64,000 bases of DNA from Bacteroidota bacterium (GTDB lineage Bacteria; Bacteroidota; Bacteroidia; Bacteroidales; TTA-H9). A model generated the notes under the pieces. It saw nothing but the letters and a program-made list of their open reading frames with translations, had not been told where the DNA came from and made no database searches. Both the position numbers and the translations under genes were made by a program. Positions 1,752 through 56,643 of this stretch are shown here, piece after piece; within the stretch, counting starts at the first letter, position 1; each line of letters opens with the position of its first letter. Where the stretch lies: contig QKGM01000004.1 of the NCBI GenBank assembly GCA_003250395.1, positions 38,646 to 102,645 of the forward strand. Direction: 5' to 3'.

Positions 1752-2441
1752 AATTTCAGTTATAAGGTGAATTGACTGTATCAGGTAAAAAGCAAAGATA
1801 TGAGGATTTATAAAATAAAAAATTGTAAAGCTGGAAGAAACAGATTGCTGTAACACGCTGTAATGAGTTTAATATCATACAGCGATTCAAGGGTAACCTC
1901 CGCAATAAAGATAGAATTTTGGAAAATTTCTTATGCTATCTGTCAGCAAATTACTTATTACCATTTTCCCGCTTTCCTTTTAATTACAATATAACACCCC
2001 ATTGGATATCAATACCGGCAGAATCTTCTAAAATTATCATGTAGCCGATTGGGCGGGTTGTTGACAATGCCGCTTCATAGACGTTGTAATTCTACATCGT
2101 TTCGGAAAATAGAATCATGAAAACGTGGCCATCCTACTAAATCATAAAATATCTCCACAACAACTGCGGCTACCGCCCATTCAAAGTGGGTTATAACAAC
2201 CCCCCGACGATCAGGGTAACCATTTCCGCCACGCATTGATTATCTGTTTCCGTCATGGGTTCAGGGGATCTGGTTCCATATATAACATTACCAAAATGAA
2301 AGGAGCTGCCTGGTGATAAAAACTCCGGTTCGCCGGAATATTTCCAGAATCGTCTTTAAGAAAATAATAAATCTCTTATCTTTGATCGGGTAAATGGACT
2401 AATCTGAAATAACCAGTTTACAGCATCAAATCTGACATAAC

Positions 2442-3383
2442 ATGAGAAAAACACATCTTATCAAACGCTTAGGTGTAATTATAGCTGTTTGTTCCTCTCT
2501 TTTCATGCTCACTTCCCCTGCCCAGGCACAAACAGAATGGGCTCCGGTGGGTGCTACATGGTACTTCAACAGACCAAGCTTTTCTTCGAGTGGCAGCTAC
2601 GTTTTATTTGAGTCGATCAAAGATTCGGTGATCAATGGTAAGGATGTGAGCGTGATAAAGGTAACAATAAACGGTGTAACACCTGTGAGCCATGAATATA
2701 TTCACCAGCATGGTGACAGCGTGTTCTATTTCAATTCACACAACAATGCCTTTTACTTACTGTACAACTTCTCGGCCGTTCCCGGTGATACGATTGTAGT
2801 ACATGACAGTTACACGAAACTTACTCCAGCATTCTTTCATGGGGAGGATAGTATCGATGGCTTCATTTACAGAGTTCTGGAGGTTGATTCGGTTTTTATT
2901 TCCGACCGATGGGTTAAAAGACAAAAAGTCGAGTCTTTCCCCACAGCCTGGGGGTTCACGGAATTTGGTGCCGATGCATACATTCTGAATGGTATCGGCA
3001 GCCAGTTGTATTTCTTTGGCTTAACAACATTTATAATGCCAAAGTTTTATCCATCCTTGCTTCGCTGTTACGATGAACCCGGCTTTAGCTTTATCAATCC
3101 CGCATGGAATCATGAGTGCGACTTTATCGCGGCAACCGGGAATGACCCAAAAGAGGCTGATTGCAGTGTTTACCCTAACCCTGTTGACGATATCGCCCGG
3201 GTACACCTTTCCGAACCGGTTGAAACCATCACGATACGAAGTATCGACGGGCGCGTACTTCAAACTTATACCCCTCAACAGACTGATGCACCGATCGATG
3301 TCTCCACGTTAACCAAGGGAAGCTACCTGATTATAATTACCTCGAAGCACCGGAATATATCCAAAATCATCATCAAAAAATAA
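2442..3383 (+). CDS. T9SS cargo protein of unknown function (type-A C-terminal sorting domain)
   Basis: Signal peptide (..SPAQAQ). The C-terminus CSVYPNPVDDIARVHL...GSYLIIITS fits the Por/T9SS CTD pattern. Confidence 0.75.
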   Translation: MRKTHLIKRLGVIIAVCSSLFMLTSPAQAQTEWAPVGATWYFNRPSFSSSGSYVLFESIKDSVINGKDVSVIKVTINGVTPVSHEYIHQHGDSVFYFNSHNNAFYLLYNFSAVPGDTIVVHDSYTKLTPAFFHGEDSIDGFIYRVLEVDSVFISDRWVKRQKVESFPTAWGFTEFGADAYILNGIGSQLYFFGLTTFIMPKFYPSLLRCYDEPGFSFINPAWNHECDFIAATGNDPKEADCSVYPNPVDDIARVHLSEPVETITIRSIDGRVLQTYTPQQTDAPIDVSTLTKGSYLIIITSKHRNISKIIIKK

Positions 3384-3487
3384 TTATCCTGTAATTCTGG
3401 TTATATTTTATCTTACCCATATAACCCTATAAACTGACTACATTCGGCCTGGTACACTCTCCCTACATCCACGTCGTGATAAACGAT

Positions 3488-3819
3488 CGAAAACGGGACC
3501 CACATCCCATTATTCCAACCGTATTCCAAAATTTAGACACGACGTTACGCCTGATTTCACCTTTTTTAAAAAAATTTCATCCAATATTGCAATTTTTTTG
3601 TGATTTTATCACCAAAACAATATTTTTTAATCCACTGATTATGCGTCATCTATAACCCGGTTTAACCCATAAGTCACAGTAAAGAGAGACCAAAGTCGTA
3701 TCAAAGATATGTTTTTCCTATGAAAAGCCTATGTTTACTGTATTCTCCGAATATCTTACATATGTACAAAACATAACTATATATTTTTTCTGGCATAATT
3801 TTAGTGGGAGCCGTTTTCA
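3488..3819. repeat. Copy A of a two-copy conserved non-coding module, bracketed by a 16-nt imperfect inverted repeat
   Basis: Hand alignment to 38696-38980. The offset is constant at 35174 nt from 3634 to 3800. Shared blocks are cccacatccc, aaatttca, actgatt, tatcaaagata, atgaaaNgcctatg and ctggcaYaatt. The IR arms cgaaaacgggacccac (3488-3503) and gtgggagccgttttca (3804-3819) match 13/16. Confidence 0.6.
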
Positions 3820-4579
3820 AATCCGTCATAATAGAAAACCGGGACCCGGGTCACTTGAAACATCATGAAAATACCGGGTGGTTAGTGATTACGCATCACA
3901 TTCTGAACAGCAAACTTCTCATCCCCCTTTATAAAATTAATGGTTTCTTTTACGATGTAGAATAATCAGATTAACATAGATGTTTCACCAGGAAGAACCA
4001 TTAATCAAATAAAGATTACTGAATTAACCCATGATGATCATAGAAATTGAATTCCGACAATTCAAAATGCCTGGGATAAAACCTGTGAATCCGGATCCTG
4101 ATAGCCCAAAGCAACGAAGTATTCAAAAAGAACCTTCGGATTGTAAACCGGTGGACTCTGCCATGCTCCCAGGAGAGGAAATCCAGGTAAATGTATCAGG
4201 AATTGTATCCACATAGCAGCGGGCAAACCGTGCTGTAAAGGCAGATATCATTTACCTGCAAAACCGATTGTAGCGACAAACTCAAAAACATTGAAAATGA
4301 ATATCCCGTTTAAAAGGAACAAGTGATTTCAATACAGGTATCTTACCACAAGGGATTGCAGGAAAAGAGCCGGGAGGTATTCCATTTTTGAACAGGTCAA
4401 CTTAGACTTCACTTCATGATTTACAGGCTACTAACATTGGTATGCATTTTATCGTACAAACCTGATTAACACACCTAATAAATAATACATACCAGATACC
4501 AGACACTCCTCCCGTCATAGAAAAACATACAACCACCCTGCATTTTTCAATAAATTGTTCACAGGTTGCCCGAACAACG

Positions 4580-4587
4580 TATATTTG
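4580..4587 (+). promoter_or_regulatory. Candidate Bacteroidota -7 promoter box (TAtaTTTG) for the TPR/LuxR gene
   Basis: Exact TAnnTTTG match 33 nt upstream of the ATG at 4621, with a TTG about 22 nt further upstream. Confidence 0.4.
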
Positions 4588-4620
4588 AACAACGATTGTT
4601 TAACTGAACCAGTTGGGGAA

Positions 4621-6426
4621 ATGTGGCGAAAACTATTTCTGTTCTTTACATGTATTATCTGGGCGGTGATTACTATCAGCCAATCAAACAACCGTCAACA
4701 GGAAATAAAAGGAATTCCGGGCATTGACTCATTGCTGATAATAGGTCAGTCGATGGATTCGGGCCCGGTCAGGATGCGCGAAGTATCGGAACAGGCGCTC
4801 ACCCTTGCCAAAGAGATTGACTATAAGAAGGGAATCATCCACGCGGCGTTTAACCTAAGCCTGTCAGAGTTCTACCAGAGTAAGTTTCTGTCATCGTATC
4901 AAATCCTTGACTCGTTATTGACGGAATTGTCTAACGACTCATTGACTTACTCGAAGTCATTCGATTACAATATTGCCAAATCAAAGATTTACTGCCTGAT
5001 GGCCATCATCTTTGATGAAACCGAGGACTACGAAAGGGCATTGGATAGTTATCTGGCAGCATTGAAGCTGATTGAAAAAACGAAAGAAAATTACGATAAA
5101 GCTCTTATCTACAAAGGCATTGGAATTATTAACTGGGGGATTGGCGAATACAAAAAGGCCGACTATTATTTTGATATAGCGCTTCAATTGAGCAAAGAAT
5201 TCAAGGATAAAAGAATTCAGTTCGACATCTATAACGAGAAATTCAAGTATTATATAAAGCATAAGGACTACCAGAATGCAGATATCTATTCCGGCAAACA
5301 GCATGAACTCTGTCAGAACAGCCAAAACATCTATATGGAGATAATTGCCGAAAAGAACCAGGCGCTGGTCTATTACCATCAGGGGAAAACCGAACTGGCT
5401 GAAGTATACATCAAAGAGTTGCTAAAGCAGAAAAAGTATCTGCAATTCCCGGATATTATTGCCGAATGCTATCTTCTTCTTTCAAACATGTACCTCGGGA
5501 ATAAAGAACCTGATCTGGCTCTGAATATGGCAAACCAGGCCTACCATTACGCGATGAAAACCGACCTTCCGCAATTGGAAGCCGATGCCCTGTTAAGCCT
5601 CTCGACGATTTATGAAACAAAAGGGCTTCTGTCAAAATCGCTTGCTCTTTTCAGAGATTATCATAATCTGACTGACTCAATCGATGAGAAAAACAATCGA
5701 CAGAAGATCATCGAAATGCAGTTCAGGCTTGACATGAACAAAATACTGAGAGAGAAGGCAAACCTCGCTGACAGCCTGACCATTAACCACCTGAGAAGTA
5801 CAAGAAAAACCTACCTGCTCTATGGGGCGCTAATCTTTATTACCCTGCTGATTTATCTTTCGCTGGCTCTTATGAAGAAATATCGTACAGAGAAAACAAA
5901 TTATGACCAGTTGGAGAAAAAACAAAAGGTAATTGATGAGCAAAGGCAAATAATCCTGAGCGATCAGGAAGAGAAATTCAGGATAGAACTGGAACACAAA
6001 AATCGTGAGCTGGTCAGCTATACAATGGCTCTTACAAGGGAAAATGAAAACAAGATAAAAATTGTAGAAGCCTTACAAAAGTTGAAAGAGAAAGCAGGCA
6101 GAGAGCCCTTAACATATTCAGACGGTATTGGACAGGTAATTAGCGAGATCAGACAAACCATCAACAGGAATTCCTGGGAAGAGTTCAGGCTCTACTTCGA
6201 GAATGTATACTCAGACTTCTTTATAAAACTTGAACAACAGTTTCCAGACCTGACCCGAAACGAGAAGAAGTTATGTGCATTCCTGAAATTAAACCTGGGC
6301 ACCAAAGAGATCGCTGCCATTACAAGCAGAGAGATCAGGTCGGTTGAGTCATCACGGGCAAGATTAAGAAAAAAGTTCAGGTTGCCATCTGATACCAGTT
6401 TTAATGAATTTCTGTCACACTTCTGA
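4621..6426 (+). CDS. TPR-repeat protein with a single TM segment and a C-terminal LuxR-type HTH (orphan transcriptional regulator)
   Basis: TPR-like Y/A-rich repeats, a TM segment (LLYGALIFITLLIYLSLALM) and a C-terminal LTRNEKKLCAFLKLNLGTKEIAAITSREIRSVESSRARLRKK resembling a LuxR/GerE HTH. The start is set to ATG 4621 (MWRKLFLFF...). Confidence 0.75.
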   Translation: MWRKLFLFFTCIIWAVITISQSNNRQQEIKGIPGIDSLLIIGQSMDSGPVRMREVSEQALTLAKEIDYKKGIIHAAFNLSLSEFYQSKFLSSYQILDSLLTELSNDSLTYSKSFDYNIAKSKIYCLMAIIFDETEDYERALDSYLAALKLIEKTKENYDKALIYKGIGIINWGIGEYKKADYYFDIALQLSKEFKDKRIQFDIYNEKFKYYIKHKDYQNADIYSGKQHELCQNSQNIYMEIIAEKNQALVYYHQGKTELAEVYIKELLKQKKYLQFPDIIAECYLLLSNMYLGNKEPDLALNMANQAYHYAMKTDLPQLEADALLSLSTIYETKGLLSKSLALFRDYHNLTDSIDEKNNRQKIIEMQFRLDMNKILREKANLADSLTINHLRSTRKTYLLYGALIFITLLIYLSLALMKKYRTEKTNYDQLEKKQKVIDEQRQIILSDQEEKFRIELEHKNRELVSYTMALTRENENKIKIVEALQKLKEKAGREPLTYSDGIGQVISEIRQTINRNSWEEFRLYFENVYSDFFIKLEQQFPDLTRNEKKLCAFLKLNLGTKEIAAITSREIRSVESSRARLRKKFRLPSDTSFNEFLSHF

Positions 6427-6904: not shown

Positions 6905-9538
6905 ATGAAGAATTTTTTGTTGACTACCTGCTTTATGGCGCTGTCGTTTATAAGCATATCTCAAAACATAAGGTATGTTAAAGTGGGAGGGACAGGCAAT
7001 GGCATCTCCTGGCAGGAAGCGTCGGGCGATATACAGGCAATGGTCAACTCATCATCACCAGGTGATCAGGTGTGGGTAGCAGAAGGGACATATATCCTGA
7101 GCGCCACTCTTCACATGAAACAGGGGGTTAATGTATATGGTGGATTCGATGGGACAGAAATCTCTCTCGAACAACGCGACTGGGAAACGAATGAAACAAT
7201 ACTTGATGGCAACTATTCGGTAGTAGTGCTGTATCAGGTCAGTACAGAAGGTGATTATTCCGAATCTGTCTGGGATGGATTTACCATTCAGAACGGGGTA
7301 TCCGATGCAAATAATGCAGGTGCCGGAGCCCATTTAGAACGGGGAGGGACAATTATCAACTGTAAGGTCATCAACAATCAGGCAGTCGATTTCGGAGGAG
7401 GAATTTACACCAGAAAAGGGGCCCGGATAGAAAACTGCTACATTGCAAATAATTATGCCAATAATGGTGGAGGTCTCTTCCTGGCCAATGGAGGTACAGT
7501 AATAAATTGTCGTATAACCCAAAACGAGGGGATGTCAGGCGGTGGTGTAGTTCCCTACGGTGGTGGCGAGGTGGTTAATTGCATCATAGACAGGAATACC
7601 GGAATATTTGGAGGCGGAGTTTATCTGGCCGGAGGCGGTACAATCGTAAATAGTGTTATCACAGGTAATAACGCAAGCTCGACAGGGGGCGGCATTTGGT
7701 CAAATTACACACAATACGGGGGACCTCCTTCTTCCGTGATTAACACTATTATCTGGGACAACACTTCTTCGGGTTCTGATCCTCAGGTATCTTTCTCGGG
7801 GACGGACAATTACGCGATAACCAATTTTGCCCATTGTGCCATACAGGATATTGGGTCAATAACCTGGGATTATATTGAAAATACTTACAATATCAATCTT
7901 GGTCCGGATAATGGTGGAACTGATGGCCCGGGATTTACTGATCCGGCTTTAGCCGATTATACCTTAACTGCCTCTTCACCTTGTATCAATATGGGAGACA
8001 ACAGTTATGCATTGTTTTATCAGAACGATTTTTACGGCAATTCACGAATCAGACAAGGGAGAATAGACATTGGTGCTAACGAGACTGATCAGGGAACACC
8101 CCCGACGGGACATCAAAGATATTATGTTTCAGGTCAGGGTAATGATGCAAATAGCGGATCGTCATGGTCTGATGCAAAATTAACGCTACAGGCGGCTTTA
8201 AATTCCGCGGCGGAAACAATCCTTCCAGGGACATCCATCGAGGTTTGGGTTGCTGAAGGAACTTATACACTAACTACTTCTGTCGAGATGAAAGAAGCTA
8301 TCTCGGTATATGGAGGCTTTACAGGTAACGAGAGTACAATTGAAGAAAGAAACTGGATAGCTAATGAAACAATTCTTAATGCTGATGCTTCATCAGCCAT
8401 CAGGAGATCAATCATCCAATATCCTGATTTTTTCGGAGCTACAACTTTTGACGGGTTCTCGCTAATAAACGGAAATGTTCCGGGTAAAGGTGGTGCTGCC
8501 ATTATCAGGAATAACGGTGTGTTGAAAAACTGTAAAATTGAGTACAATGCTGCCGGGTTGAGAGGTGGCGGAGTTTACCTTCAGGAAGGGGGAATAATAC
8601 AAAACAGTACCCTTGCAAATAACACTGCACTAATAGGTGGAAGTGCATTTTTTAATTACGGAGGAGAGATGACCGCCAGTATTCTTGAAAACAATTCAGC
8701 CGAATTGGGTGGAGCTATTTGCTGCGAAAACGGTGGATATATCAGAAACTGCCTCTTCAGGGAAAACAATGCCGATTACATAGGAGGCGGAGTTTGTATC
8801 TCTTTTGGAGCTGACCTTGTCAATTGTACTTTCGTAAACAATAATTCCCATCAATCAGGCGGAGGTATGTATGGCGAATACGACAACCAGATGGGTGGAA
8901 TTGGTTTGAGGATATCGAATTCAATATTCTGGAATAATTCATCCAACGGTTCCGGTCAGCAAATCAACCTAAATGGAGGAAATTCGCACATTTCGCTCTC
9001 CAATTGTGCTATACAGGACATTGATCAGGTCATATTCGGTTCAACTGAACTTCACGATAACATTAATCTTGACGCGGTTAATGACGATCCCGATGGACCT
9101 CAGTTTACGGATCCCGGCTCTGGAGTATTCGCCCTTACCAAAAACTCCCCCTGTGTCAATACAGGCGAAAACAACGTAGTTACCGACCAATTTGATCTTG
9201 CCGGCAACGATCGGATCCAGGGTCAAACTGTTGATATCGGAGCCTATGAAAGTCCCTTCTTGACTGCCATTCCTACAGTATTGCCGGTGGCATTATTTGT
9301 TCAGGCTTATCCTAATCCTGCTACTGACCGGGTGACTATTGACATGGCAGGGGCAACAGGTCCTGTAAGGGTAGAAATTTTAAATTCACTTGGTGCTATG
9401 ATACAGAAAACCAATTTCTCTGCCGGTGAGTACGATTCAAAGATTGAACTCGGACTGGAGGAAATTCCTTCGGGTACAATCTTCATTAAAGTATCATCCA
9501 ATGAAGGCATTAAGATTGCTAAATGTGTAAAACGCTAA
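6905..9538 (+). CDS. Right-handed beta-helix repeat T9SS cargo protein (two repeat halves, each ending in DIGANE/DIGAYE)
   Basis: Many GGG(I/V)Y..NG..I.NC..N.A repeats, internally duplicated (aa about 30-400 and 410-790). The CTD is AYPNPATDRVTIDM...GTIFIKV. The start is set to ATG 6905 (MKNFLLTTCFMALSFISISQ). Confidence 0.8.
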   Translation: MKNFLLTTCFMALSFISISQNIRYVKVGGTGNGISWQEASGDIQAMVNSSSPGDQVWVAEGTYILSATLHMKQGVNVYGGFDGTEISLEQRDWETNETILDGNYSVVVLYQVSTEGDYSESVWDGFTIQNGVSDANNAGAGAHLERGGTIINCKVINNQAVDFGGGIYTRKGARIENCYIANNYANNGGGLFLANGGTVINCRITQNEGMSGGGVVPYGGGEVVNCIIDRNTGIFGGGVYLAGGGTIVNSVITGNNASSTGGGIWSNYTQYGGPPSSVINTIIWDNTSSGSDPQVSFSGTDNYAITNFAHCAIQDIGSITWDYIENTYNINLGPDNGGTDGPGFTDPALADYTLTASSPCINMGDNSYALFYQNDFYGNSRIRQGRIDIGANETDQGTPPTGHQRYYVSGQGNDANSGSSWSDAKLTLQAALNSAAETILPGTSIEVWVAEGTYTLTTSVEMKEAISVYGGFTGNESTIEERNWIANETILNADASSAIRRSIIQYPDFFGATTFDGFSLINGNVPGKGGAAIIRNNGVLKNCKIEYNAAGLRGGGVYLQEGGIIQNSTLANNTALIGGSAFFNYGGEMTASILENNSAELGGAICCENGGYIRNCLFRENNADYIGGGVCISFGADLVNCTFVNNNSHQSGGGMYGEYDNQMGGIGLRISNSIFWNNSSNGSGQQINLNGGNSHISLSNCAIQDIDQVIFGSTELHDNINLDAVNDDPDGPQFTDPGSGVFALTKNSPCVNTGENNVVTDQFDLAGNDRIQGQTVDIGAYESPFLTAIPTVLPVALFVQAYPNPATDRVTIDMAGATGPVRVEILNSLGAMIQKTNFSAGEYDSKIELGLEEIPSGTIFIKVSSNEGIKIAKCVKR

Positions 9539-9603
9539 AGAAAGATACAGACAGAACTTAAAATCTGCGCTATACAGCAGGCTGGCAATTATCCGATGAT
9601 TCA

Positions 9604-9645: not shown

Positions 9646-10115
9646 TCAGTAGATCAGCCTGGTGGTCGAAAACCAAATTCCATTTACAAAATAAAAAAAC
9701 CGGGGATTAAATTGCTCTACATAAACCTGATCAGGATCGAAGAATCACCCCAAACCTTAAAAAATCCTGCGGTCCAATTTCCTTTTCATACTCTTTCAGG
9801 AAACCAGAAAAGCATAATACAATAAATGAAACAATTCACCAGAGCAGCAACAAACTGTGTATAACCTGTCTGATAAACAGTGAATATCGAGGTATACCAT
9901 CAAGAAAATTCCGTAACAATAATTTTCTAATCATGTACAGTTCTCTGGTCATGGCAATTACTTAGACCAGGAATCGGGATTGGTTACCATCCGGAAAACC
10001 ACATTAATAAATATTAAATAACGATGGCAAAGGCAATGCCTATGCAAACAGTTTATTAAATCGCTGCACCAAAAATAAATCTGTCTACCTTTGCCAGAAC
10101 ATTAACAGAAGTTGC

Positions 10116-15246: not shown

Positions 15247-17559
15247 CTAATCCACCACCAGGCGAATCGTGTTGGTAGAATGTCCATCAGAAATCATAAC
15301 ATGGTAGACACCGCAACCAAATTGAGAAAGGTCGACATTTAAAACTTCTCCGGCATTCAATTCAAACTCCTTAACCTGCTGTCCTGCAAGATTAAAGATT
15401 CTTGCAGTAGTTTTTCCATCACCTGTATTTTCAACTTTAACAAAATCGTGAGTAGGATTAGGATATATGCGGAACTGTCCGTTTTCAGGATTTTCAACTC
15501 CGACAAAATTTTCAACTGCAATAGTATGAGCCTCTGAGAAGCTTGATGTTCCACATTCGTTAACGGCTTTTACCGTAATAAGCGCGTTATCATTGAACCA
15601 AACATTACCCCAAACGGCATTACCCGTGGTAGTATCCCCCAACATCAAACCAGCGGTTGCCGGTTCAATATTCCACTCATAGGTCTCAGCATAAGTAACG
15701 GCAGAGGTTGTAAAAGGAGTTTGCATACCAGGTGTAGCAATAACTTCGGTTGGTCCTGTTGGTGTTGTCGGAATTGCCGGGACTGCTTTCACTACCACAT
15801 TAGCGGAACCAATCATGTTAGCTTCACAACCATTTCCTGACCCTTTCACGGTATACGTTCCTCCGGTAGTCTGATTACCAAAACTGATCGCATTTCCCGT
15901 ACCGACAACCGGTGATCCGGTTACAACACCATTCAGATACAATGAATAGCTTAATCCACTCTCTGAATCATCGAGGCCAACAGGTACTCCATTAGTCCCT
16001 TCGCATGATGTTCCACCGCCAGTAACTGAAAAAGCTACAGGCCCCGGATTAACTGTGACAATAATTGGATTACTGGAAGGACCTTCGCATCCACCATTTA
16101 ACCCCTTAACGGTAATAGTAGCTGTACCACTGAATGCTGGATCCCAATCAACTGTACCAGTCGTCCAGAAAGTGGTAATGGTTCCTGCAGATGCAGGAGA
16201 AATCTCCCATAAATATCCAGAAACATTTGAAGCTCCGGTTGTAGAATACTCAGTATCCGGAGCATCCATACATAAGGAAGTAGGTCCTGTAGGTGTATCA
16301 GCCTGGGATGGTTCTGAATCTATGGAAATTGAAAGTGCTGGACTCCACAACCCGGGGCCACAATCGTTAACACCTCTTACCTTTAAAGTAGCAATACCTA
16401 AGAAACTCGGATCCCAGTCGATGACGGCATTATTGGTTCCGGGAGTGAGTGTCCCTGCTGTAGCAGGTGTAAGCACCCATTCATATGTAGATGCTGTATT
16501 TATTACCGAAACAGAATATGATGAATTGGGGGAATTCTGACACATTCCTGTGGATCCAAATATAGTCCCGGCAGCAGGGGGAGCAGCTGTGACATGAATA
16601 AAATCTGATTTAACTTCCTTGTTCCCCTGACTGGAATTCCAGGCGGTAAGGATAACATCATAATTACCCGGTGTTGAATATGTTACTGAAGGGTTTTGTA
16701 GTGTTGATGTAGTAGGATTCCCTCCAGGAAACTCCCAGCTCCAGTTGGTTGCACCGGTAGACTGATCCGTAAAGGAAATGGTTTCCGGACCACAAAAAGT
16801 AGTCTGGTTAGCAGTAAAATTCACTGGAAGCGGAGCAGGCAAGGCAGTCAGAGGTACTTTACTTCCCTGTAAGATTTCTTTTGTGGTATTATCCTGAATA
16901 AAGGCTACCAATTCACAGTTAGCTGCCACCCACGCCGGATCTTTGGTAAAAGCAAGGTTAATAAATTGAAAATTACCATTTGCGAAACTAATAGGTGTTC
17001 CATTATGATCAGGAGCCATTAACCGTTCAACATAGTTTAACTCTGTCATACCTTGCCATGACTGAGATATTTCAGACTCTGTAAGCACAAGGTGAACAAC
17101 CAGATTGGTTCCCGAATAATCGGCTACCTTATTAATATTCAATGTAACATTATAATCATTGCCAGACGAGGTACCTGTAACTCCAACAGTAAAAGACGAG
17201 AGTACAGCATTGCGGGCATCAACAAGAGGAATATAATCGGGATATTTACTTACCGTATGGCTCCCTCCAACTTCAGTAAGAGTACCATCAAAATTTGCTG
17301 TCGGATACCCTGTTAGGTTATAATAATTGTTACGCGCATCTGATGCCGTATTGGTATAAGAATCGCCGTTATGGTATTCAACTACAGCTACATTGTAACC
17401 GTTGGCAATGAGATCATCAGCTCCCATTGCAGCACCAGGACAATACTGACACCAGGTTCCTGTTCCGATTTCAAGAACAACCATTTGTCGAGGAACTTGT
17501 TGGGCAATAGTCCAACTAAAAAATGAAAAAGCAAAGATTAAAAGTGAAAGTTTTCGCAT
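15247..17559 (-). CDS. T9SS cargo with an N-terminal thioredoxin-like CxxC domain (WCQYCP), a PKD domain and four PKD-like Cys-containing modules
   Basis: The N-terminus QQVPRQMVVLEIGTGTWCQYCPGAAMGADDL is about 70 percent identical by eye to the neighbour at 17739-19214. It has a PKD-type block (FCGPETISFTDQSTGATNWSWEFPGGNP) and the CTD RIYPNPTHDFVKV. The start at ATG 17559 lies downstream of the terminator hairpin at 17605-17646. Confidence 0.8.
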   Translation of the reverse strand: MRKLSLLIFAFSFFSWTIAQQVPRQMVVLEIGTGTWCQYCPGAAMGADDLIANGYNVAVVEYHNGDSYTNTASDARNNYYNLTGYPTANFDGTLTEVGGSHTVSKYPDYIPLVDARNAVLSSFTVGVTGTSSGNDYNVTLNINKVADYSGTNLVVHLVLTESEISQSWQGMTELNYVERLMAPDHNGTPISFANGNFQFINLAFTKDPAWVAANCELVAFIQDNTTKEILQGSKVPLTALPAPLPVNFTANQTTFCGPETISFTDQSTGATNWSWEFPGGNPTTSTLQNPSVTYSTPGNYDVILTAWNSSQGNKEVKSDFIHVTAAPPAAGTIFGSTGMCQNSPNSSYSVSVINTASTYEWVLTPATAGTLTPGTNNAVIDWDPSFLGIATLKVRGVNDCGPGLWSPALSISIDSEPSQADTPTGPTSLCMDAPDTEYSTTGASNVSGYLWEISPASAGTITTFWTTGTVDWDPAFSGTATITVKGLNGGCEGPSSNPIIVTVNPGPVAFSVTGGGTSCEGTNGVPVGLDDSESGLSYSLYLNGVVTGSPVVGTGNAISFGNQTTGGTYTVKGSGNGCEANMIGSANVVVKAVPAIPTTPTGPTEVIATPGMQTPFTTSAVTYAETYEWNIEPATAGLMLGDTTTGNAVWGNVWFNDNALITVKAVNECGTSSFSEAHTIAVENFVGVENPENGQFRIYPNPTHDFVKVENTGDGKTTARIFNLAGQQVKEFELNAGEVLNVDLSQFGCGVYHVMISDGHSTNTIRLVVD

Positions 17560-17738: not shown

Positions 17739-19214
17739 CTATCTATTGATAACAAACCTTTTTACAATTATCTTCTCTCCTGTTTCAATCCTAAGCACAT
17801 AAACCCCATTACTCAAACTTCTGACATTGAGGATTTGGTTATAGGTTGAGAAAGAACCTTTCATTACCTCGCTACCATTAGCAGAGGTAATAGTATAATT
17901 GGATAAACCATCCTCCTTACGTTGGATAGTAAGTATATCCTGAACGGGGTTTGGATAAATAGCTACTTCTTTGGTATTTATATTACCAACTGATGTACAG
18001 GGATCAAAATACAAATTCTGAGTTTTTGAAATAACACAGCCTTGCTCTGAGGTAACGGTAACCGTAAAAGTATGTTCACCAACCCCATAAACATTGCCAT
18101 CGGCTACAAGTTCAGCAGTCGTAATATCACCAGGCTGCCAGAGATAAGAAGAAGCTGCAGGAGTAGTAGCATCCAACGAAACACTTCCTGTTACGCAAAC
18201 AGTATCATTCGGAGTAACAACCATATTCACAGTGGTCATATCGCCAACTGATATATAAGCTTCTTTACCTATTGAATCAATCTGACCACCACGATCAACA
18301 ACAAGACTTACATCAAATGCTCCGCACTGATTATAAGTAACCGTAGGATTTTCATCGGTTGATGTTGCTGGATCTCCGCCGGGGAAATACCATTTATATG
18401 TCTCAGGGGCATGCATATATCCACCAGAAGTACTATTGGTAAAAGACACGGAATTGTTAAGACTTACTTGGGTTGATGCAGCTGTAAAATCAGCGGTCAG
18501 ATCAATTGCTGCCTGTTTTATTCCCCCTAACATCTCTTTGTTGGTTGCTTGTATAGCAGCAACAAACTCAACATCTTCAACAGGTACAGCAGAATTCATT
18601 GTAAAGTTAAGTGTAACAATAACCTGATTTGTTCCTGTGAAATCAAGTATCGTTCCGTTTTGATCCGGTACCATTAAACGGTTCACAAAATTCAATTCCG
18701 TTTGTCCTTGCCAGTTTTGAGCAATGTTTGATTGGGTTACAAAAAACTGCAATTTTGATCCACTCGGAGCAGAAGTACCAAGGTAGTCAATTGTAATGAC
18801 AGCCGTATAATCCAAGTCAACATTAGTGACAACCATATCCATAATGAAATCAGTCGGAATGGCTATCCGTTGGTTATACTTTGGCAAATAGTTGGAATAC
18901 ATACTTTGTGTATGTGAACCACCAGATACTTTCAGAACACCGTCAAAAATGGCAGTCGGGTAACCTGTCAAAGCATAGAAAGAATTTCTCGAGTTGCTGT
19001 ATTGATTAGCATATGAGTCACCATTATGGTTTTCAACGACGGCGACATGACAACCGTTCTCAACTAAATCATCAGCCCCCATTGCTGCTCCAGGGCAATA
19101 TTGACACCAGGTACCTGTTCCAATTTCAAGAATGACCATTTCTCGTGGCACCTGCTGGGCAATTAATGAAAAGGACATAAAAAGTCCGGCGAATAATAGA
19201 TAAATGTGTTTCAT
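17739..19214 (-). CDS. T9SS cargo with an N-terminal thioredoxin-like CxxC domain (paralogue of 15247-17559)
   Basis: QQVPREMVILEIGTGTWCQYCPGAAMGADDL, a PKD-type block (YKWYFPGGDPATSTDENPTVTY) and the CTD AIYPNPVQDILTIQ...GVYVLRI. Confidence 0.8.
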   Translation of the reverse strand: MKHIYLLFAGLFMSFSLIAQQVPREMVILEIGTGTWCQYCPGAAMGADDLVENGCHVAVVENHNGDSYANQYSNSRNSFYALTGYPTAIFDGVLKVSGGSHTQSMYSNYLPKYNQRIAIPTDFIMDMVVTNVDLDYTAVITIDYLGTSAPSGSKLQFFVTQSNIAQNWQGQTELNFVNRLMVPDQNGTILDFTGTNQVIVTLNFTMNSAVPVEDVEFVAAIQATNKEMLGGIKQAAIDLTADFTAASTQVSLNNSVSFTNSTSGGYMHAPETYKWYFPGGDPATSTDENPTVTYNQCGAFDVSLVVDRGGQIDSIGKEAYISVGDMTTVNMVVTPNDTVCVTGSVSLDATTPAASSYLWQPGDITTAELVADGNVYGVGEHTFTVTVTSEQGCVISKTQNLYFDPCTSVGNINTKEVAIYPNPVQDILTIQRKEDGLSNYTITSANGSEVMKGSFSTYNQILNVRSLSNGVYVLRIETGEKIIVKRFVINR

Positions 19215-31988: not shown

Positions 31989-32127
31989 AAATTACAACAC
32001 CCTGTATATTTAGTATTTACAATTAAAGACCCTAAGGACGACACCCTGTTTTGTTGTTTCGGAATGAAACGGTAGTCTGTAACACATCCGAACAATGTTT
32101 ACTTTTATAGCCTCATCCATATCAAAT

Positions 32128-33483
32128 ATGAATCTTTCTTCTCCATCCGGACATCTGTTAATTATTGACGATGACGAACACATCCTGATTACAACCAGAA
32201 TTTTGCTTAAAAGGTTGTTCTTTTCTGTCGATATCCTGACAATGCCCAAAGAACTCACGGCTAAACTCTTTGTCAGGAAATACGATGTGATACTCCTGGA
32301 TATGAACTTCCTGCCGGGTAATACTACCGGTGAAGAAGGATTGGATGTCCTCAGGCAAATAAGAAGTACCCAGCCTGAAGCCCGGGTTATCCTTATGACG
32401 GCCTATGGCGATATAAACCTCGCTGTGAAGGCAATGAAAAACGGAGCAACCGATTTTATTGTTAAACCGTGGGCAAACCAGGACTTACTATCTGCTGTTG
32501 AAACTGCCCGCAGGCTGGATACTTCCCGAAGCTACCAACCTGACAACACAACCTTTGAGCAAGAGCCATCCAGAATGATTATAGGTAGCTCCCCAACCAT
32601 GGAAGCACTATGGAAAATGGTAGCAAAGGTGGCCCCTACCGATGCAAACGTTTTGATAATGGGCGAAAACGGAACAGGAAAAGAACTGGTAGCCCGCGAA
32701 ATACATAATCTTTCGGGACGTGCTGAAGCACCTTTCATCCACATCGACTTAGGTGCTATTGCTGCCTCACTGTTCGAGGACGAACTCTTCGGTCATGAGA
32801 AAGGTGCTTTTACAGATGCTCGTGAATTGCGTTTGGGACCTTTCGAAAAAGCTTCTGGGGGGACATTGTTCCTCGATGAAATTGGAAATCTGCCCCTCAC
32901 TCTGCAAAGCAAATTATTAACTGCTCTGCAATCCCGGAAGGTTACCCGTCTAGGGTCAAATCGTCAGATTGATATTAATTTCAGGCTAATCTGCGCTACA
33001 AACAGCCAGTTAGGCGAGTTGGTAAAAACCCGGCAGTTTCGCGACGATCTGTACTTCCGGATAAATACTGTTGAACTCACTCTCCCTCCCCTTCGCGATC
33101 GCTGCGAAGATATCCCTGTTCTTGTTAATCATTTTCTTGAACGATATAGCTCACAATATAAAAAACCCACGCTTAAAATTGGAAATGAAATCATCAGAAG
33201 TATCCTCGCATACGAATGGCCTGGAAATATACGCGAGCTTCAACATATCATCGAACGGGCTGTCATAATGTGCGACAGTGAAAAAATTACAATAGCTGAT
33301 CTTCGCCTTCCTGTTCAACACGATTCAATAACTGGTAACAGCTCCCTTAACCTCGAGATGCTTGAAAAGGAAGCTATTCGCAAAGCACTGCTTACCCATG
33401 GAGGAAATCTTACCCAGGCAGCCCTGGAGCTTGGGCTTGGCCGTACAACCCTGTACCGCAAAATGGAAAAGTATGGCCTTTAA
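32128..33483 (+). CDS. Sigma-54-dependent response regulator (NtrC family: receiver, AAA+, Fis-type HTH)
   Basis: Receiver (LLIIDDDEH..DVILLDMNF), Walker A GENGTGKE, GAFTDA (GAFTGA variant), and C-terminal LGLGRTTLYRKMEKYGL. The start is set to ATG 32128. Confidence 0.85.
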   Translation: MNLSSPSGHLLIIDDDEHILITTRILLKRLFFSVDILTMPKELTAKLFVRKYDVILLDMNFLPGNTTGEEGLDVLRQIRSTQPEARVILMTAYGDINLAVKAMKNGATDFIVKPWANQDLLSAVETARRLDTSRSYQPDNTTFEQEPSRMIIGSSPTMEALWKMVAKVAPTDANVLIMGENGTGKELVAREIHNLSGRAEAPFIHIDLGAIAASLFEDELFGHEKGAFTDARELRLGPFEKASGGTLFLDEIGNLPLTLQSKLLTALQSRKVTRLGSNRQIDINFRLICATNSQLGELVKTRQFRDDLYFRINTVELTLPPLRDRCEDIPVLVNHFLERYSSQYKKPTLKIGNEIIRSILAYEWPGNIRELQHIIERAVIMCDSEKITIADLRLPVQHDSITGNSSLNLEMLEKEAIRKALLTHGGNLTQAALELGLGRTTLYRKMEKYGL

Positions 33484-35151: not shown

Positions 35152-37713
35152 TTAATAAAACACAACACTCCTTGAATAAATACCATCCCGTGCCACGATC
35201 CGAACCACGTAGATACCACCTGGCAGATTAATCAACCAACTGTTATCGGGTTCATCATGTATAGCATACCTTAACATTACCTGTCCGGCCATATTAATAA
35301 TTTCTACACCGGATTCCCCGGCATCACATACATGTAGTACGTTGCCAACAGTATATACATGAATCCGGTCAGTAATAGGTGTACCTATCCCTACATCTCC
35401 CACCAACAGCTTAAAACGTAGTGGCAGATCGGCTTCAGATGAAGTGAAATTATAGACCGAATCAAGTGAAAGATTCTGATTTACGCCTGTCTTCAAATCA
35501 CAAAGAATCACATCATGCTGAATGGACTTCAAGCCGCAAACTTCAAGTGTATAGGCATCTGACTCATTTTTAATAAAAACAAGAGGTACCTCTGCAGGTT
35601 GGATCGCATCTGACAAGGTATTATAACTCAACCATTCCTCACCTGCAACCGAACAGAATACAGGCCCGTTCCCTTTCAAAAAATGTCCATCACAACATGA
35701 ATCAAATCCCGAAGTTCCCATCGGGCTAAACTCTACAACTGTCTCTTTTCCCGAAGAACGATCGGCAGCCATCGCTGTGAGCTTAAGGCAGGACTCTAAC
35801 GATGCTTTATACCAAACCTGAGCACTGTGTACTCGTTTTGCTGCAGGAATTGCAACCGAAGCGTTATTGTTCAATACCTCTACCATAAATCCATTCATCG
35901 AAGGAATCGGCCCATTTTGAATAGCAGAATAATCATTCAATGTTTCATTCCATATCTGGCATACGGCTCCTGTATTATAGTTTTCCCAGCTATTATCCCA
36001 CATCAGGGCACTGGGGTAAGGATTGCCCAGCAAATGCCAAGCCTGTGAAACAGAGGCATCTGTTTTGGTAAGACCCGTGATCGCATAACTACCCACAGTC
36101 ATCACACCTTTAAACTGCTTCATTCCCGTTTGTTCATAGGCAACCAAATAACCATGTCCCGTCCTGAATTCCGTTGTCCCGCCGTTCACCTCGTAAAAGG
36201 TGGGTGAAACCGTGGTATTCTTATAGTTAACCCAAACAGAATAGGGCTCCGACCATGAAAAAAAATCAAAATCGTTCCCAACCCCACCAGTAACGAAACC
36301 TCCATCTGCATTAATCTCTTGCCCTGCTACCGGCGAGGACATCAGGTGCCAGCCATTTCCCCCTTCGCTCCATCCTTCTATGGTTTGCTCTATCGTGGCA
36401 TTTACCCCCGCGGTAAGCAATATCAACGATCCGCCCTGCTCGATCTTCAACTCTTCCGCCATTCCCCCGGTCGAAAGAGTTCCCATAACTGTCAGGTTGC
36501 TGCCTGTCTGAAGAGTCAGTGTTCCTGATGAAATCCTCAGTCCTCCCGACAGAACGGCATTTGTAGCATTAAAAATCACCCCTTCAGGGTTTTGTAGTTC
36601 CAGGGTTGCATACCCTGTTGAAGTAATGGTGCCACCTCCTGAAATGGTTTGTTGCGCGGGGCCATTTAAATAAATTGTTCCTGAACTGGTAGGTGCAAAA
36701 TTTAATGCAGCCTCTGAGGCAACTGATATGTTACCCTTAATTGAATGACCTCCTGTCCCAACCATTTTCAAATTCAATGTGCCATTGGTAATCGTCAGGT
36801 TGTCTATTGAGTAAGGGTTATCACCATTGGGCGAAAGAGTCTTCATTGAAGCATCTACCTCGATGTCGGCAAATGTGCGTCCTGAAAACTTAATTGAAAG
36901 GTCGGTTGTCAGCTTAAACAAACTCCCGGTCTGAAAAACGATCACACTTCCTGGCGAAGCCAAAGCAAACGGATCCTCCCCCGTCATCGATATGTAACAG
37001 GAGCCCGCCTGAAAAACAACTGAATTCTGAGTAGTCTTTCCGAAGGGATTGCCATTGAAACCAGTACCTGCTGTGAAGCATGATCCTGCCTGAAACAATA
37101 TTCCATTTTCATCAGCCGATACAATCCGTTGAGTGCCATTGGTAAATTCAACTGAACCTCCAATTACCGCTGTTGCATTGTGTTCAAGAGCAATGGTCAG
37201 CCCTAATGATCCCATAATATTTAACTGTGATCCTGCCTCTACCACCAGATCATCTCCAGAACCACCAGTCAATGTCAAAGTCCGAGTACTGATCGGCATC
37301 AGGGTAATACTTGTATTTCCCGTAATAGAAATCTGTCCTACCCGTTCTGATGGTACATTCGTGATAACACGCGGGAACCCTATCCTGAAAATCAGGATAT
37401 CCGTTTCGGCAGGCGATTCACGTGACGGATTCCAGTTAACGGGATCCACCCATGAAGCAGAGCTTACTCCAATCCACTCATAAGTTTGAACTATAGCTTT
37501 TCCGGTGGTTGTAATATCCTGCCCGAAAGCAAACCCATCCTTACTAAATACTGAGATTTGACTGATAGATAATGGAGCAAGACAAGAACGGCTACTTTTT
37601 TTATCTTCCTCTCTTAATTTGTGAACCATTGCCATTGAATGCTGCCCCCAACCCAGTTGCATTACAAGTCCGGGGATGAAGACAAGCAATGTACGCAAAT
37701 AATACATTTTCAT
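35152..37713 (-). CDS. T9SS cargo protein with adhesin-like beta-helical G/T/S-rich repeats
   Basis: Signal peptide, a repetitive TLTGGSGDDLVVEAGSQLNI-type passenger-like region, and a degenerate CTD (..IINMAGQVMLRY...GGIYVVRIV). Confidence 0.75.
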   Translation of the reverse strand: MKMYYLRTLLVFIPGLVMQLGWGQHSMAMVHKLREEDKKSSRSCLAPLSISQISVFSKDGFAFGQDITTTGKAIVQTYEWIGVSSASWVDPVNWNPSRESPAETDILIFRIGFPRVITNVPSERVGQISITGNTSITLMPISTRTLTLTGGSGDDLVVEAGSQLNIMGSLGLTIALEHNATAVIGGSVEFTNGTQRIVSADENGILFQAGSCFTAGTGFNGNPFGKTTQNSVVFQAGSCYISMTGEDPFALASPGSVIVFQTGSLFKLTTDLSIKFSGRTFADIEVDASMKTLSPNGDNPYSIDNLTITNGTLNLKMVGTGGHSIKGNISVASEAALNFAPTSSGTIYLNGPAQQTISGGGTITSTGYATLELQNPEGVIFNATNAVLSGGLRISSGTLTLQTGSNLTVMGTLSTGGMAEELKIEQGGSLILLTAGVNATIEQTIEGWSEGGNGWHLMSSPVAGQEINADGGFVTGGVGNDFDFFSWSEPYSVWVNYKNTTVSPTFYEVNGGTTEFRTGHGYLVAYEQTGMKQFKGVMTVGSYAITGLTKTDASVSQAWHLLGNPYPSALMWDNSWENYNTGAVCQIWNETLNDYSAIQNGPIPSMNGFMVEVLNNNASVAIPAAKRVHSAQVWYKASLESCLKLTAMAADRSSGKETVVEFSPMGTSGFDSCCDGHFLKGNGPVFCSVAGEEWLSYNTLSDAIQPAEVPLVFIKNESDAYTLEVCGLKSIQHDVILCDLKTGVNQNLSLDSVYNFTSSEADLPLRFKLLVGDVGIGTPITDRIHVYTVGNVLHVCDAGESGVEIINMAGQVMLRYAIHDEPDNSWLINLPGGIYVVRIVARDGIYSRSVVFY

Positions 37714-38695
37714 TACACATTGAAATTTGGTTTTAGAATTTTAATATGGTAAACCATTCAGATTTACCGGTAACTAATATTCCGGCAGTTGTCAATCACG
37801 ATGAATTATCCTGAAAACTACTCTTCCTGACAGAACCGCTGGTTTGTCCGTATCCGGGTTGAATAACAGGCAAACTCCCATGCTTGCCCGACTCGTATCT
37901 GATCCTCCTTAGTAAAAGGTGGCCGTTGCGCTGTTGCAATGGCTGCCCCGTGATCCCGGCAATTCATGTCAGATGATAAAATGCTTGCCTGTTGCCGTCC
38001 GGTTGCAGCCCAGAATAATCAATTTTCCATTCGTTAATTCAAATGATACACTAATCTCATGTTGCTACCATATCTCAAAACAATTAAGGGTTTAGGTAAT
38101 GGATTTGTATTCTACACCTATCTTGACAGGAGTTCCAAAGAAATTCTGTCCTGATGTTCTCAGAAGTATTTCCGGTGTTTTGCTGTATGCTCCGGACTTA
38201 GTCGTCACCCCTCTCTTATCGAAGGGTTAAAAGTTCTGCGCTCTGATAAAACTCCGATAACCGGAATGAGAGTAATGCACACTTATTCAGATTGTCAGAT
38301 CGTGGATTAAAAGTTCAAGAACAAAATTAACTCATTTTATATAAAATTGAATTACAATGAGAAAAAAACTTTGACATGTTCTTCTGCTAAACTACCCCCC
38401 CTTTCAACGAATTTTCGGGTATCTAAATAAAAAATCAGCAATAAATGCGAACATGTTATCTGCCATCATGGAAATAAACCCACTATACGCCTGACAAATA
38501 TTCCTTCAGGTTGTTCAACATTAAAACAGCGCAACACATTCATCCAAATCATCCAGTATCTTCATGTGAGTCTCTGTTCTCTGATTCCCTCTAATTTAGA
38601 TTCAATTGCCTGGTTTAATCAATAAATTTCTCCTATCAGCGCTTTCCCGGAGAGCATACCTGCAGCTCTGATTTTTTTCGGACATTAAACAACTT

Positions 38696-38980
38696 CCCAC
38701 ATCCCAGGCATCCTTTCATGACCAATTCTGTTGCTCTTAAAGAAAATTTCAGCTTTTTGCATGCTTTTTTGCATGATGCATTGCCAAGCTAACCCGTTTT
38801 ATAACCAACTGATTTTATGTTATCTGTAAGCTGTTTCTATACCGGTGAAACCCAGAAGATATATTAAAGATATATCAAAGATACCTTTTCGATATGAAAT
38901 GCCTATGAATACAGTAACGTCTCGATATCATACATATAAAAAAAACCTGAATGTGTAAAATCCCTGGCACAATTCCGGCA
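38696..38980. repeat. Copy B of the two-copy conserved non-coding module
   Basis: See copy A. It contains tatcaaagata (38873-38883), three 11-nt phased RAAG units (38855, 38866, 38877) and cTGGCACaattccgGCA (38964-38980), which has sigma-54-type GG-N10-GC spacing. Confidence 0.6.
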
Positions 38981-39662
38981 GCAGGACTTGATCTGAAATA
39001 CCCGCTATACAGACAGTTGCAACTGACTGCAGGCAGGTTACCAGTAACCTGTCGGGAGGCATCTTTTAGAAATCAGATATCTGTATCACCTCATTACGGA
39101 CCAGTGCCAAGGGCAATTATGTTGGTCTGTTACGTAACAGTAGTATCAATCGTTGAAGAATTTATTTACCAGGGCTATCCTGTAATCAAGTATGAAGTCT
39201 TGTATATCACCAGGATAAAGAAAAAAGACGATCAGCTGAATCGTTTGCCTTTCAGGAAAGTACAACGAGGCTAAATCGCAGAAAGGCATCGGTACTATTC
39301 CAACCAGAAAGAGGTCATATCATTACTGATCTGTTTCAATTGCCTGGCATTTCATATTATTTCAGGCTAAATATTATAAGGTTATAACTTAGAAACCTGT
39401 AAACCTATGGGTCGAAATTATGAATTTCTACGGGTTACACTCCAACAACAATAATACTTTTAGCCTGTAAAACACTGTATCGAAAAATTGTACAAATTTC
39501 AGTTATACCATCACGAACAATTGAGAGCTGTTGATAATCATTTGTTGAAAACATCAATAACAATAACATATATCTGCACCAAACCGAAACCACGAAAAAA
39601 AGAAGAAATTTAGGCGGCTTTAGCAAGAATCACCAACCCTGAAGGCAAAATAAGCGACAGGA

Positions 39663-46166: not shown

Positions 46167-46213
46167 GATGCATCAGTGAAGGAGTACCAACGAAAGCCGG
46201 AACTATTTAATGA

Positions 46214-46308
46214 CTTATCTGTCCCTTACGGGTAGGAGTTGGCACCTTGCCGCTCGGGCAGGTTGCCAAGGTTTCGACGGGCCTAATCCCTCAACCTTTC
46301 TGGATAAG
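46214..46308 (-). promoter_or_regulatory. SAM-I (S-box) riboswitch aptamer
   Basis: The minus strand reads CUUAUCCAGAAAGGUUGAGGGAUUAGGCCCGUCGAAACCUUGGCAACC...GGUGCCAACUCC...GAUAAG. It matches the SAM-I hallmarks: P1 CUUAUC/GAUAAG, GAGGGA, GGCCC, GAAAC, GGCAACC and GGUGCNAA. Confidence 0.75.
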
Positions 46309-56625: not shown

Positions 56626-56643
56626 CCTTTTTATGATCAGACC

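Follow-up and report, generated by a model that had tools for sequence, protein, structure and literature searches.

A selected, lineage-restricted non-coding module found twice in the genome of an uncultured Bacteroidales bacterium, and most likely a promoter under regulation

Introduction

What keeps a stretch of about 300 bp of non-coding DNA recognisable at two loci 35 kb apart in the same bacterial genome? The question is raised by a segment of 64,000 nucleotides (contig QKGM01000004.1 of assembly GCA_003250395.1, positions 38,646 to 102,645), which was analysed as a whole and is called the window here. It comes from an uncultured Bacteroidales genome in which many genes carry C-terminal sorting domains of the type IX secretion system (T9SS), and its closest relatives are the metagenome-assembled genomes HGW-Bacteroidetes-22 and GCA_003520805.1. 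An earlier note, made from the letters of the window alone, had described a module in two copies, A and B, and had considered that it might be a protein-binding regulatory array, a structured RNA, an invertible promoter or a mobile element. We find that the two copies are diverged versions of one non-coding module, which is real and under selection. The module is restricted to one lineage. As regulatory DNA it is ordinary, and a regulated promoter is what it most likely represents.

Two diverged copies of one non-coding module

The homology of the two copies is clear. When the two intergenic regions are compared by Smith-Waterman local alignment, the score is 73, against a mean of 25.0 for shuffled sequences (standard deviation 2.3, maximum 33), which bears out what the earlier note had proposed. 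The aligned spans, 3566-3800 in copy A and 38737-38974 in copy B, lie on the same strand; no inverted homology links A and B, the reverse-strand score of 25 being noise. The gap-free stretch that had been described is recovered as an ungapped block from 3634 to 3800 at a constant offset of 35174, with 108 of its 167 positions identical. For the right part of this block (3710-3800) the earlier hand count of 61 identities in 91 positions is exact, whereas a recount of the middle part gives 32-33 identities in 58 positions instead of 29. The similarity extends further to the left, as far as 3499 in A and 38696 in B, because CCCACATCCC is confined to those two sites in the whole 64 kb; linking it to the remaining alignment takes an indel of about 25 nt. 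The full extent of the module is thus 3499-3800 for copy A and 38696-38975 for copy B. A search of the window with nhmmer, using a profile built from the two copies, finds exactly these two and no third.

Several short elements stand out within the alignment. The 11-mer TATCAAAGATA is identical in both copies, at 3699-3709 and 38873-38883, as had been seen before. At the right end, the plus-strand island CTGGCAYAATT (3790-3800) contains TGGCAT in copy A and TGGCAC both in copy B and in the ortholog of copy A discussed below. The short palindromes that had been reported to differ between the copies are also present: GTGAT-TTT-ATCAC, or GTGATTTTATCAC, lies at 3600-3612 in copy A after a run of seven T, and TGCAT-G-ATGCA, or TGCATGATGCA, lies at 38770-38780 in copy B after a run of six T. 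Both modules are AT-rich, as is usual for promoter regions, with a GC content of 28-32% against 41.8% for the window.

The module is not a protein-coding sequence. Mismatches between A and B number 18-21 at each codon position in all six frames, and the codon changes include only 2-6 synonymous ones against 31-36 that are non-synonymous. The even spread of the mismatches and the non-synonymous excess therefore argue that the module is non-coding, and they agree with the earlier statement that no reading frame is shared. The frames of the short minus-strand open reading frames (ORFs) do not agree between A and B, and one of these ORFs carries a frameshift in the ortholog. A 107-aa ORF overlapping copy B has no homolog among 1.84 billion representatives. 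Protein coding was rejected on all these counts, and likewise by tblastx and by tblastn of the local proteins against both segments, neither of which gave a coding signal or revealed a pseudogene.

Purifying selection on the core of copy A

Syntenic loci in the relatives were reached via the flanking proteins. In GCA_003520805.1, positions 9057-9596 of the locus L017 correspond to 3384-3921 of the window with 91.7% identity, and this is the ortholog of copy A. It lies between two tandem paralogs of the 313-aa T9SS cargo gene that precedes copy A, and it is followed by 7.7 kb without counterpart in the window, which hold the second 313-aa paralog, an S8 peptidase gene and a 631-aa T9SS cargo gene.

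Divergence from the ortholog varies strongly along this alignment. The coding sequence (CDS) of the 313-aa gene differs by 7.1%, and 41 of its 67 differences are at third codon positions, or 13% of those sites (41/314). The intergenic DNA left of the module differs by 5.5%, the left part of the module by 6.8%, the core (3681-3800) by only 2.5%, and the DNA to the right of 3818 by 18-21%. As bounded by this conservation, unit A runs from 3477 to 3818 (L017 9150-9493) with 14 differences in 342 nt (4.1%), and its flanks differ by 7.5% (3384-3476) and by 18-21% (3819-3921); within the unit, 3477-3700 is about 5% diverged. The 2.5% of the core compares with about 9.5% for the rest of the intergenic alignment (Fisher p = 0.012).

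The strongest constraint is found in a block of 94 nt, 3702-3795, without a single substitution. At the synonymous rate of 13% about 12 substitutions would be expected there, and the chance of seeing none is about 2e-6 (0.87^94). The core is thus changing at a slower pace than the coding sequence next to it. On the minus strand, the final G of the candidate promoter box TATCTTTG is exactly where the block begins, and from there the block extends about 95 nt upstream of the box; it is also the part that is best conserved between A and B. The one nearby change in the ortholog, T to C at 3701, breaks the palindrome TATC-N3-GATA and leaves TATCTTTG intact. The conservation of these blocks in related genomes, on which the earlier note had let its reading depend, is complete over 3702-3795 in the ortholog of copy A. 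This sequence comparison shows purifying selection, and it is centred on the box and the 95 nt or so upstream of it.

Copy B is missing from its locus in the same relative. This locus is fully syntenic in GCA_003520805.1, with metH, MTHFR, pcrB, the cargo gene, a kinase and the sigma-54 regulator all in place. The promoter-proximal 620 nt of the cargo gene's leader are conserved there, and the 1314 nt that hold module B in the window are replaced by 423 unrelated nt. In HGW-Bacteroidetes-22, homology to the window begins at 4135, and module A is absent from those contigs.

A candidate promoter box next to phased repeats

For the primary sigma factor of Bacteroidota, TAnnTTTG is documented as the -7 element (PMC7366714, PMC8748976), and the -33 element that goes with it is frequently absent in this phylum (PMC7366714). 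The minus-strand -7 box that had been noticed inside the 11-mer is indeed there: the candidate box TATCTTTG occupies 3702-3709 in copy A, where it is kept in the ortholog, and 38876-38883 in copy B. In its extended form, TATCTTTGAT, it is identical to the promoter of the 313-aa gene (2377-2386, plus strand). TAnnTTTG is found 20-70 nt upstream of at least 12 genes of the window, including the SAM (S-adenosylmethionine) riboswitch leader of metH, and because of this positioning it is the working -7 box in this genome.

Around the box, both copies repeat with a period of 11 nt. Lag 11 is the top autocorrelation in each (0.46 and 0.49, against a null of about 0.29), and the periodicity holds after correction over lags 2-40 (p = 0.005-0.017). 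In copy A, the degenerate phased array spans 3681-3790 and comprises about 9-10 units (lag-11 autocorrelation 0.46 against a null of 0.28±0.05, corrected p = 0.011); no tandem array is called there by Tandem Repeats Finder (TRF). In copy B, TRF calls the 11-nt tandem repeat AAGATATATCA at 38856-38883 (2.5 copies, 94% matches), which covers the -7 box along with two units on its downstream side that resemble the box. The three AAAG/GAAG units of the earlier note are confirmed at 3681, 3692 and 3703 in A and at 38855, 38866 and 38877 in B. Its pair of YTATG units does have the 11-nt spacing, with the correction that CTATG starts at 3718 and 3729, not at 3717 and 3728, and that the first unit of copy B reads ATATG.

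Read on the minus strand, the array takes the form of direct repeats. CATAGG-N5-CATAGG-N5-CATATC, with 11-nt spacing, abuts and overlaps the -7 box of copy A (3706-3733), and CATAGG-N5-CATATC abuts that of copy B (38891-38907). The proximal direct repeat (CATAGG-N5-CATAGG or CATATC) stops 7 nt short of the -7 box, and further out, in the same 11-bp register, there are units of the GATAT, AATAT and CATAT types. In the window and in the fetched loci, CATAGG-N5-CATAKS is restricted to the modules and their orthologs.

Two observations on the repeats stand by themselves. The A-specific left part of the unit contains a further direct repeat at 11-nt spacing, TATTCCAA-N3-TATTCCAA (3511-3529), which is not found in copy B and which sits within a 63-nt stretch (3477-3539) with zero substitutions relative to the ortholog. 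In the Logan contigs of SRR7216773, there is a break in module B: one contig stops at 38885 and the next begins at 38861, with a 25-nt overlap, so that the break falls exactly inside the 11-nt tandem repeat 38856-38883. It could reflect heterogeneity of repeat number in the population or be an assembly artefact. Inversion at a 12-bp inverted repeat was rejected as its cause: the end coordinates do not fit, and the break matches the 11-mer tandem repeat.

A model for the module

How might these elements work together? Each copy may be an activator-dependent minus-strand promoter module with a phased operator array, a reading based on sequence that we hold tentatively and rate at a little below even probability. 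It would be a lineage-specific cis-regulatory module that acts as DNA, a promoter for the primary Bacteroidota sigma factor directed along the minus strand. Its candidate -7 box TATCTTTG lies at 3709-3702 and 38883-38876, and in place of a recognisable -33 TTTG the box is directly abutted by an array of degenerate 11-bp units that is about 90 nt long. The nearest units are CATAGG-N5-CATA(GG/TC), followed by the GATAT/AATAT/CATAT-type units, all on one helix face. A regulator that recognises head-to-tail direct repeats might bind cooperatively to this array; the textbook example of such a binder, and by analogy the candidate type here, is a winged-helix response regulator of the OmpR/PhoB class. 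As in class II activation, the proximal repeat pair could then take the place of the absent -33 element. The predicted start sites are near 3696 and 38870, with transcription proceeding leftward. In copy A and its ortholog, the predicted transcript would first cover about 220 nt of conserved non-coding DNA and would then reach, in antisense orientation, the 3' end of the 313-aa T9SS cargo gene. From copy B it would be directed towards the long leader of an 853-aa cargo-like gene. Measured from the putative start site of copy A, the invariant block spans about -5 to -99 on the minus strand. A promoter and its activator sites would be expected in just this interval, which is part of what leads us to the promoter module. 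The earlier suggestion of a protein-binding regulatory array gains support in the same way, from a strict helical phasing that looks like that of such arrays and from the purifying selection shown by the ortholog. We infer from this layout that the box may fire and that the repeats may be bound by protein, and on the same footing we suggest what type of protein this might be and what role or target the transcript might have.

Comparison with known systems gives this model its outline. In OmpR/PhoB-family operators such as Pho boxes, multi-repeat ArcA sites and PhoP sites, head-to-tail direct repeats are spaced 11 bp from centre to centre and abut the -10 element in place of a -35. Such repeats, when they replace the upstream promoter element, are a hallmark of winged-helix response-regulator operators. 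The module resembles them, as an analogy, in its 6-mer direct repeat at 11-bp spacing immediately upstream of the -7 box, and also in having phased units that reach to about -100 and no -33 element. It differs in that its repeat matches no known box and that a typical Pho box is shorter and less degenerate than its array. The parC centromere of plasmid R1 has ten 11-bp ParR iterons that flank a promoter, and in the module, too, a run of direct units of 11 bp surrounds a promoter element and keeps to one face of the helix. Unlike parC, it is chromosomal, has no par genes and very degenerate units, and occupies two loci 35 kb apart in syntenic core genome. It resembles sigma-ABfr promoters (-7 TAnnTTTG, -33 TTTG) in the perfect TATCTTTG of both copies, in the identity of TATCTTTGAT with a gene promoter in the window, and in its AT-rich context; unlike them, it lacks a -33 TTTG at the usual distance and, in copy A, a gene directly downstream, and its start site is a predicted one.

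A number of points weigh against the activator-dependent promoter. There is no -33 TTTG at the canonical distance of about 17-21 nt upstream of the -7 box, only TTTT/TTTC at 13 nt. In the window as a whole, TAnnTTTG is not more frequent than chance (54 occurrences against 62 expected), and the box might simply result from repetition of the unit ATATCTTT, since the box of copy B is one of three tandem ATATCTT(T/C) units. The two copies are oriented differently relative to the neighbouring genes: the promoters of copy A and its ortholog point, via about 220 nt of conserved non-coding DNA, at the 3' end of the convergent 313-aa gene, and that of copy B points towards the 853-aa gene, which already has its own conserved box, TAATTTTG, at 38322-38329. 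No intrinsic terminator is predicted for the module. An OmpR-family pair at 55339-57336 is merely present in the window, and no regulator is linked to the module. The constraint was measured against one independent ortholog sequence, because this region is the same in four assemblies of that population. Finally, the module is absent from syntenic loci of the relatives, so its function must be dispensable or very lineage-specific.

Genomic setting

Copy A lies in an intergenic region of 1.24 kb, between the 313-aa T9SS cargo gene (2442-3383, plus strand) on the left and, on the right, a gene for a tetratricopeptide repeat/helix-turn-helix (TPR/HTH) regulator (4621-6426, plus strand); an 890-aa cargo gene is also found downstream of it in the window genome. 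Copy B lies in an intergenic region of 1.95 kb between the 853-aa gene (35152-37713, minus strand), whose product is cargo-like with beta-strand repeats, and pcrB (39663-40400, minus strand). An NtrC-type sigma-54 regulator gene (32095-33483) adjoins the copy B locus together with a kinase gene. No transposase, integrase or invertase domain is found among the window ORFs of at least 150 aa.

The surroundings of both copies have features of their own. The 313-aa T9SS cargo gene is cassette-like (window 2439-3416; L017 8112-9596 and 10001-10975), with two or three tandem paralogs in the relative. Homology between the window and these paralogs begins at the start codon, and for the second paralog it stops 33 nt past the stop codon. 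The 7.7-kb indel separates the two genomes between about 3921 and 4135. Further right, the non-coding leader of the TPR/HTH regulator gene (4135-4620) is far better conserved than the gene: it diverges by 8.0% from HGW-Bacteroidetes-22, against 14.9% for the CDS and 31% for its third codon positions, and the segment 4315-4554 by just about 3%. This leader has no Rfam match, a fold z-score of -0.29 and no 3-nt periodicity in its differences. On the side of copy B, the 853-aa cargo-like gene has a non-coding leader of about 620 nt (37718-38338), which is 70-72% identical to the syntenic locus of GCA_003520805.1, where coding DNA is 76-80% identical; the conserved -7 box TAATTTTG on the minus strand at 38322-38329 implies a 5' untranslated region of about 600 nt.

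Three other features of the window may be recorded. A SAM riboswitch (RF00162, 77.5 bits) at 46212-46310 on the minus strand lies upstream of metH, with a TATCTTTG -7 box at 46333-46340 on the same strand. The OmpR-family two-component pair at 55339-57336 consists of a HisKA/HATPase kinase and a Response_reg/Trans_reg_C regulator (56644-57336) and adjoins a T9SS cargo gene (57388-59196, minus strand); it belongs to the candidate class of binder for 11-bp direct repeats and shows no link to the module. A direct repeat of 159 nt, 80% identical (17350-17508 and 19005-19163), lies inside two neighbouring PKD/T9SS cargo genes, which suggests that their paralogy is recent or that gene conversion has occurred.

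Alternative explanations

If the module acted as RNA and not as DNA, it would be a non-coding RNA gene (a small RNA or a cis-acting RNA, on either strand), with the conserved islands as RNA motifs. This would account for the islands AATCAGT, TGAAATTTT and GGGATGTGGG, which are conserved downstream of the putative start site, for the low divergence of 3477-3700 from the ortholog (only about 5%), and for a palindrome that keeps one shared position while its sequence differs between the copies. The unit of copy A closed by its inverted repeat (IR) even folds with z-scores of -2.5 on the plus and -2.0 on the minus strand, but these values merely restate the IR, and the core folds no better than shuffles (z-scores from -0.98 to +0.54). 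There is no Rfam family over both intergenic regions at the gathering threshold or at E <= 10 (noise only), the covariation term of RNAalifold is positive and hence unfavourable on both strands, with many pairs broken in B (three sequences, so of low power), substitutions in the ortholog break predicted pairs without compensatory change, and no terminator is predicted. Moreover, the strongest constraint falls upstream of the putative start site, outside the transcript. The structured RNA envisaged earlier is thus not supported, and an RNA gene of any kind is improbable. A plus-strand sigma-54 promoter, with TGGCAC at the 3' end of the module, the core as upstream activator or bending region and the NtrC-type regulator (32095-33483) as candidate partner, is highly improbable. 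The motif TGGCAC-N5-cgGC, with the correct GG-N10-GC spacing, is found in copy B only (38965-38979, plus strand), and 44 such matches of equal quality occur in the window against 48 expected. The ortholog of A does read TGGCAC, a dyad TATC-N3-GATA lies about 90 nt upstream, and an activator and a kinase are encoded beside the B locus; yet A and its ortholog read TAGTG and lack the -12 GC, conservation between A and B does not extend to the -12 region, no plus-strand gene follows copy B (the 107-aa ORF being without homolog), and the relative has the same activator and kinase without a module B. The conserved DNA could instead be left over from transposition, as a MITE-like insertion (miniature inverted-repeat transposable element) or a solo-end relic, that is, two old independent insertions that are decaying or partly exapted. 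Both copies lie in long intergenic regions, in stretches that are indel-rich and lineage-specific; the syntenic locus of GCA_003520805.1 lacks B and has 423 nt that cannot be aligned with the 1314 nt here, and A, which has an IR, adjoins the 7.7-kb indel and is missing from the HGW-Bacteroidetes-22 contigs, whose homology runs from 4135. Against this, neither the window nor 243 kb of related loci contain a further copy, and island-pattern scans of 596 Gbp of genomes and of the JGI metagenome set gave only chance matches in coding DNA (pyruvate dehydrogenase, an ABC transporter and one other gene), without returning the source genome itself. Viral contigs, plasmids and phages (the last two searched by BLAST) gave no match either. 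The window has no transposase, no target-site duplication or direct repeat abuts the IR arms, and A and B have no common termini or terminal inverted repeats. Two copies that are about 65% identical, with none of these marks and no true match in the collections, give no support to the end of an insertion sequence or MITE that had been offered as an alternative, and strong purifying selection on the core is unlike a decaying relic; we see a slim chance for this origin. It is slimmer still for the idea that the copies now have no function and are neutral remnants of an old segmental duplication or an 11-mer minisatellite. Just two copies at about 65% identity, an array that resembles decayed tandem 11-mers and relatives that manage without the module are what this would predict, but it does not predict 0 substitutions in 94 nt against 13% at the neighbouring gene's synonymous sites, or exact islands of 6-11 nt whose spacing is strictly kept over 167 nt although the flanks are randomised. 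Two further candidates were dropped. As attL and attR of an integrated element the copies would enclose 35 kb which in the relative form part of the syntenic core genome, and they share only about 65% identity; for oriC, dif or DnaA boxes, there are two copies and no good box.

The remaining question is whether the promoter could be invertible. Copy A is bracketed by a left arm GAAAACGGGACCCAC (3489-3503, plus strand) and a right arm (3804-3818, minus strand; reverse complement GAAAACGGCTCCCAC), so the IR bracket of the earlier note is present, as 13 matches in 15. An IR of at least this quality with 100-500 nt spacing appears in 20% of shuffled 751-nt regions, so by itself it is not above chance, and copy B has no IR comparable to these arms. 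The third copy of the arm reported at 3834-3849 does show similarity, at the cost of a 1-nt indel, and it is decayed in the relative (3 substitutions). If the arms were recombinase sites, flipping of the 300-bp segment would put the TATCTTTG promoter on the plus strand, where it would face the TPR/HTH regulator gene and the 890-aa cargo gene in the window genome, and in the ortholog the second 313-aa paralog, the S8 peptidase gene and the 631-aa T9SS cargo gene. Bacteroidales invertons (as defined in PMC8748976) are the obvious comparison: like them, copy A has a TAnnTTTG promoter between IR arms that lie about 300 bp from each other, in intergenic DNA beside genes for secreted or surface proteins, which are the usual inverton targets. 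The IR encloses the box (3702-3709) at inverton-typical spacing. The left arm has no substitution in the ortholog, the two arms together differ there only at their final position, and they fall exactly on the borders of the conserved unit, divergence jumping to 18-21% right beyond the right arm. Unlike invertons, however, the module has a weak IR in one copy (copy B has the core without it) and no invertase nearby. Among the window ORFs of at least 150 aa there is no recombinase, though a trans-acting enzyme could be encoded elsewhere in the genome; the arm motif is found at no other site of the window; and the six assemblies examined (the window, L001 and four of the relative) share one orientation. 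An inverton, which could only concern copy A, is therefore unlikely. A wider version of the idea starts from an inverted CATAGGCWTTTCA island that recurs 240-450 nt to the right in copy A (3954-3993), in its ortholog (L017 9690-9719 or about 9690-9725, in DNA otherwise unalignable with the window) and in copy B (39346-39357). In A it is a minus-strand inverted partial copy of 3710-3746 (30 of 40 columns), and in B GGCATTTCATAT, on the plus strand, is a perfect 12-nt inverted partner of 38892-38903; both matches are weak, their scores being reached by 14 and 24 of 300 shuffles. The recurrence hints at a second binding or recombination site. The shared core might then be a portable, rearranging promoter cassette, in which a trans-acting recombinase flips the 330-bp IR unit of A, the CATAGGCWTTTCA islands serve as second recombination or looping sites and the 11-mer count of B varies, but we consider this rather improbable.

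Implications

The comparison of these two loci has a methodological side: a single orthologous sequence suffices to tell a two-copy, 65%-identical non-coding similarity from a relic. Should the module turn out to be a rearranging cassette, copy A would switch a T9SS cargo operon or its TPR/HTH regulator, and this would amount to phase-variable control of secreted proteins in uncultured groundwater Bacteroidales. If the activator-dependent promoter is the right reading, the 11-bp repeat unit could be used as a probe for its regulator, by DNA affinity purification sequencing (DAP-seq) or electrophoretic mobility shift assay (EMSA), and this lineage would have deployed a regulator-dependent promoter twice beside genes for type IX-secreted proteins.

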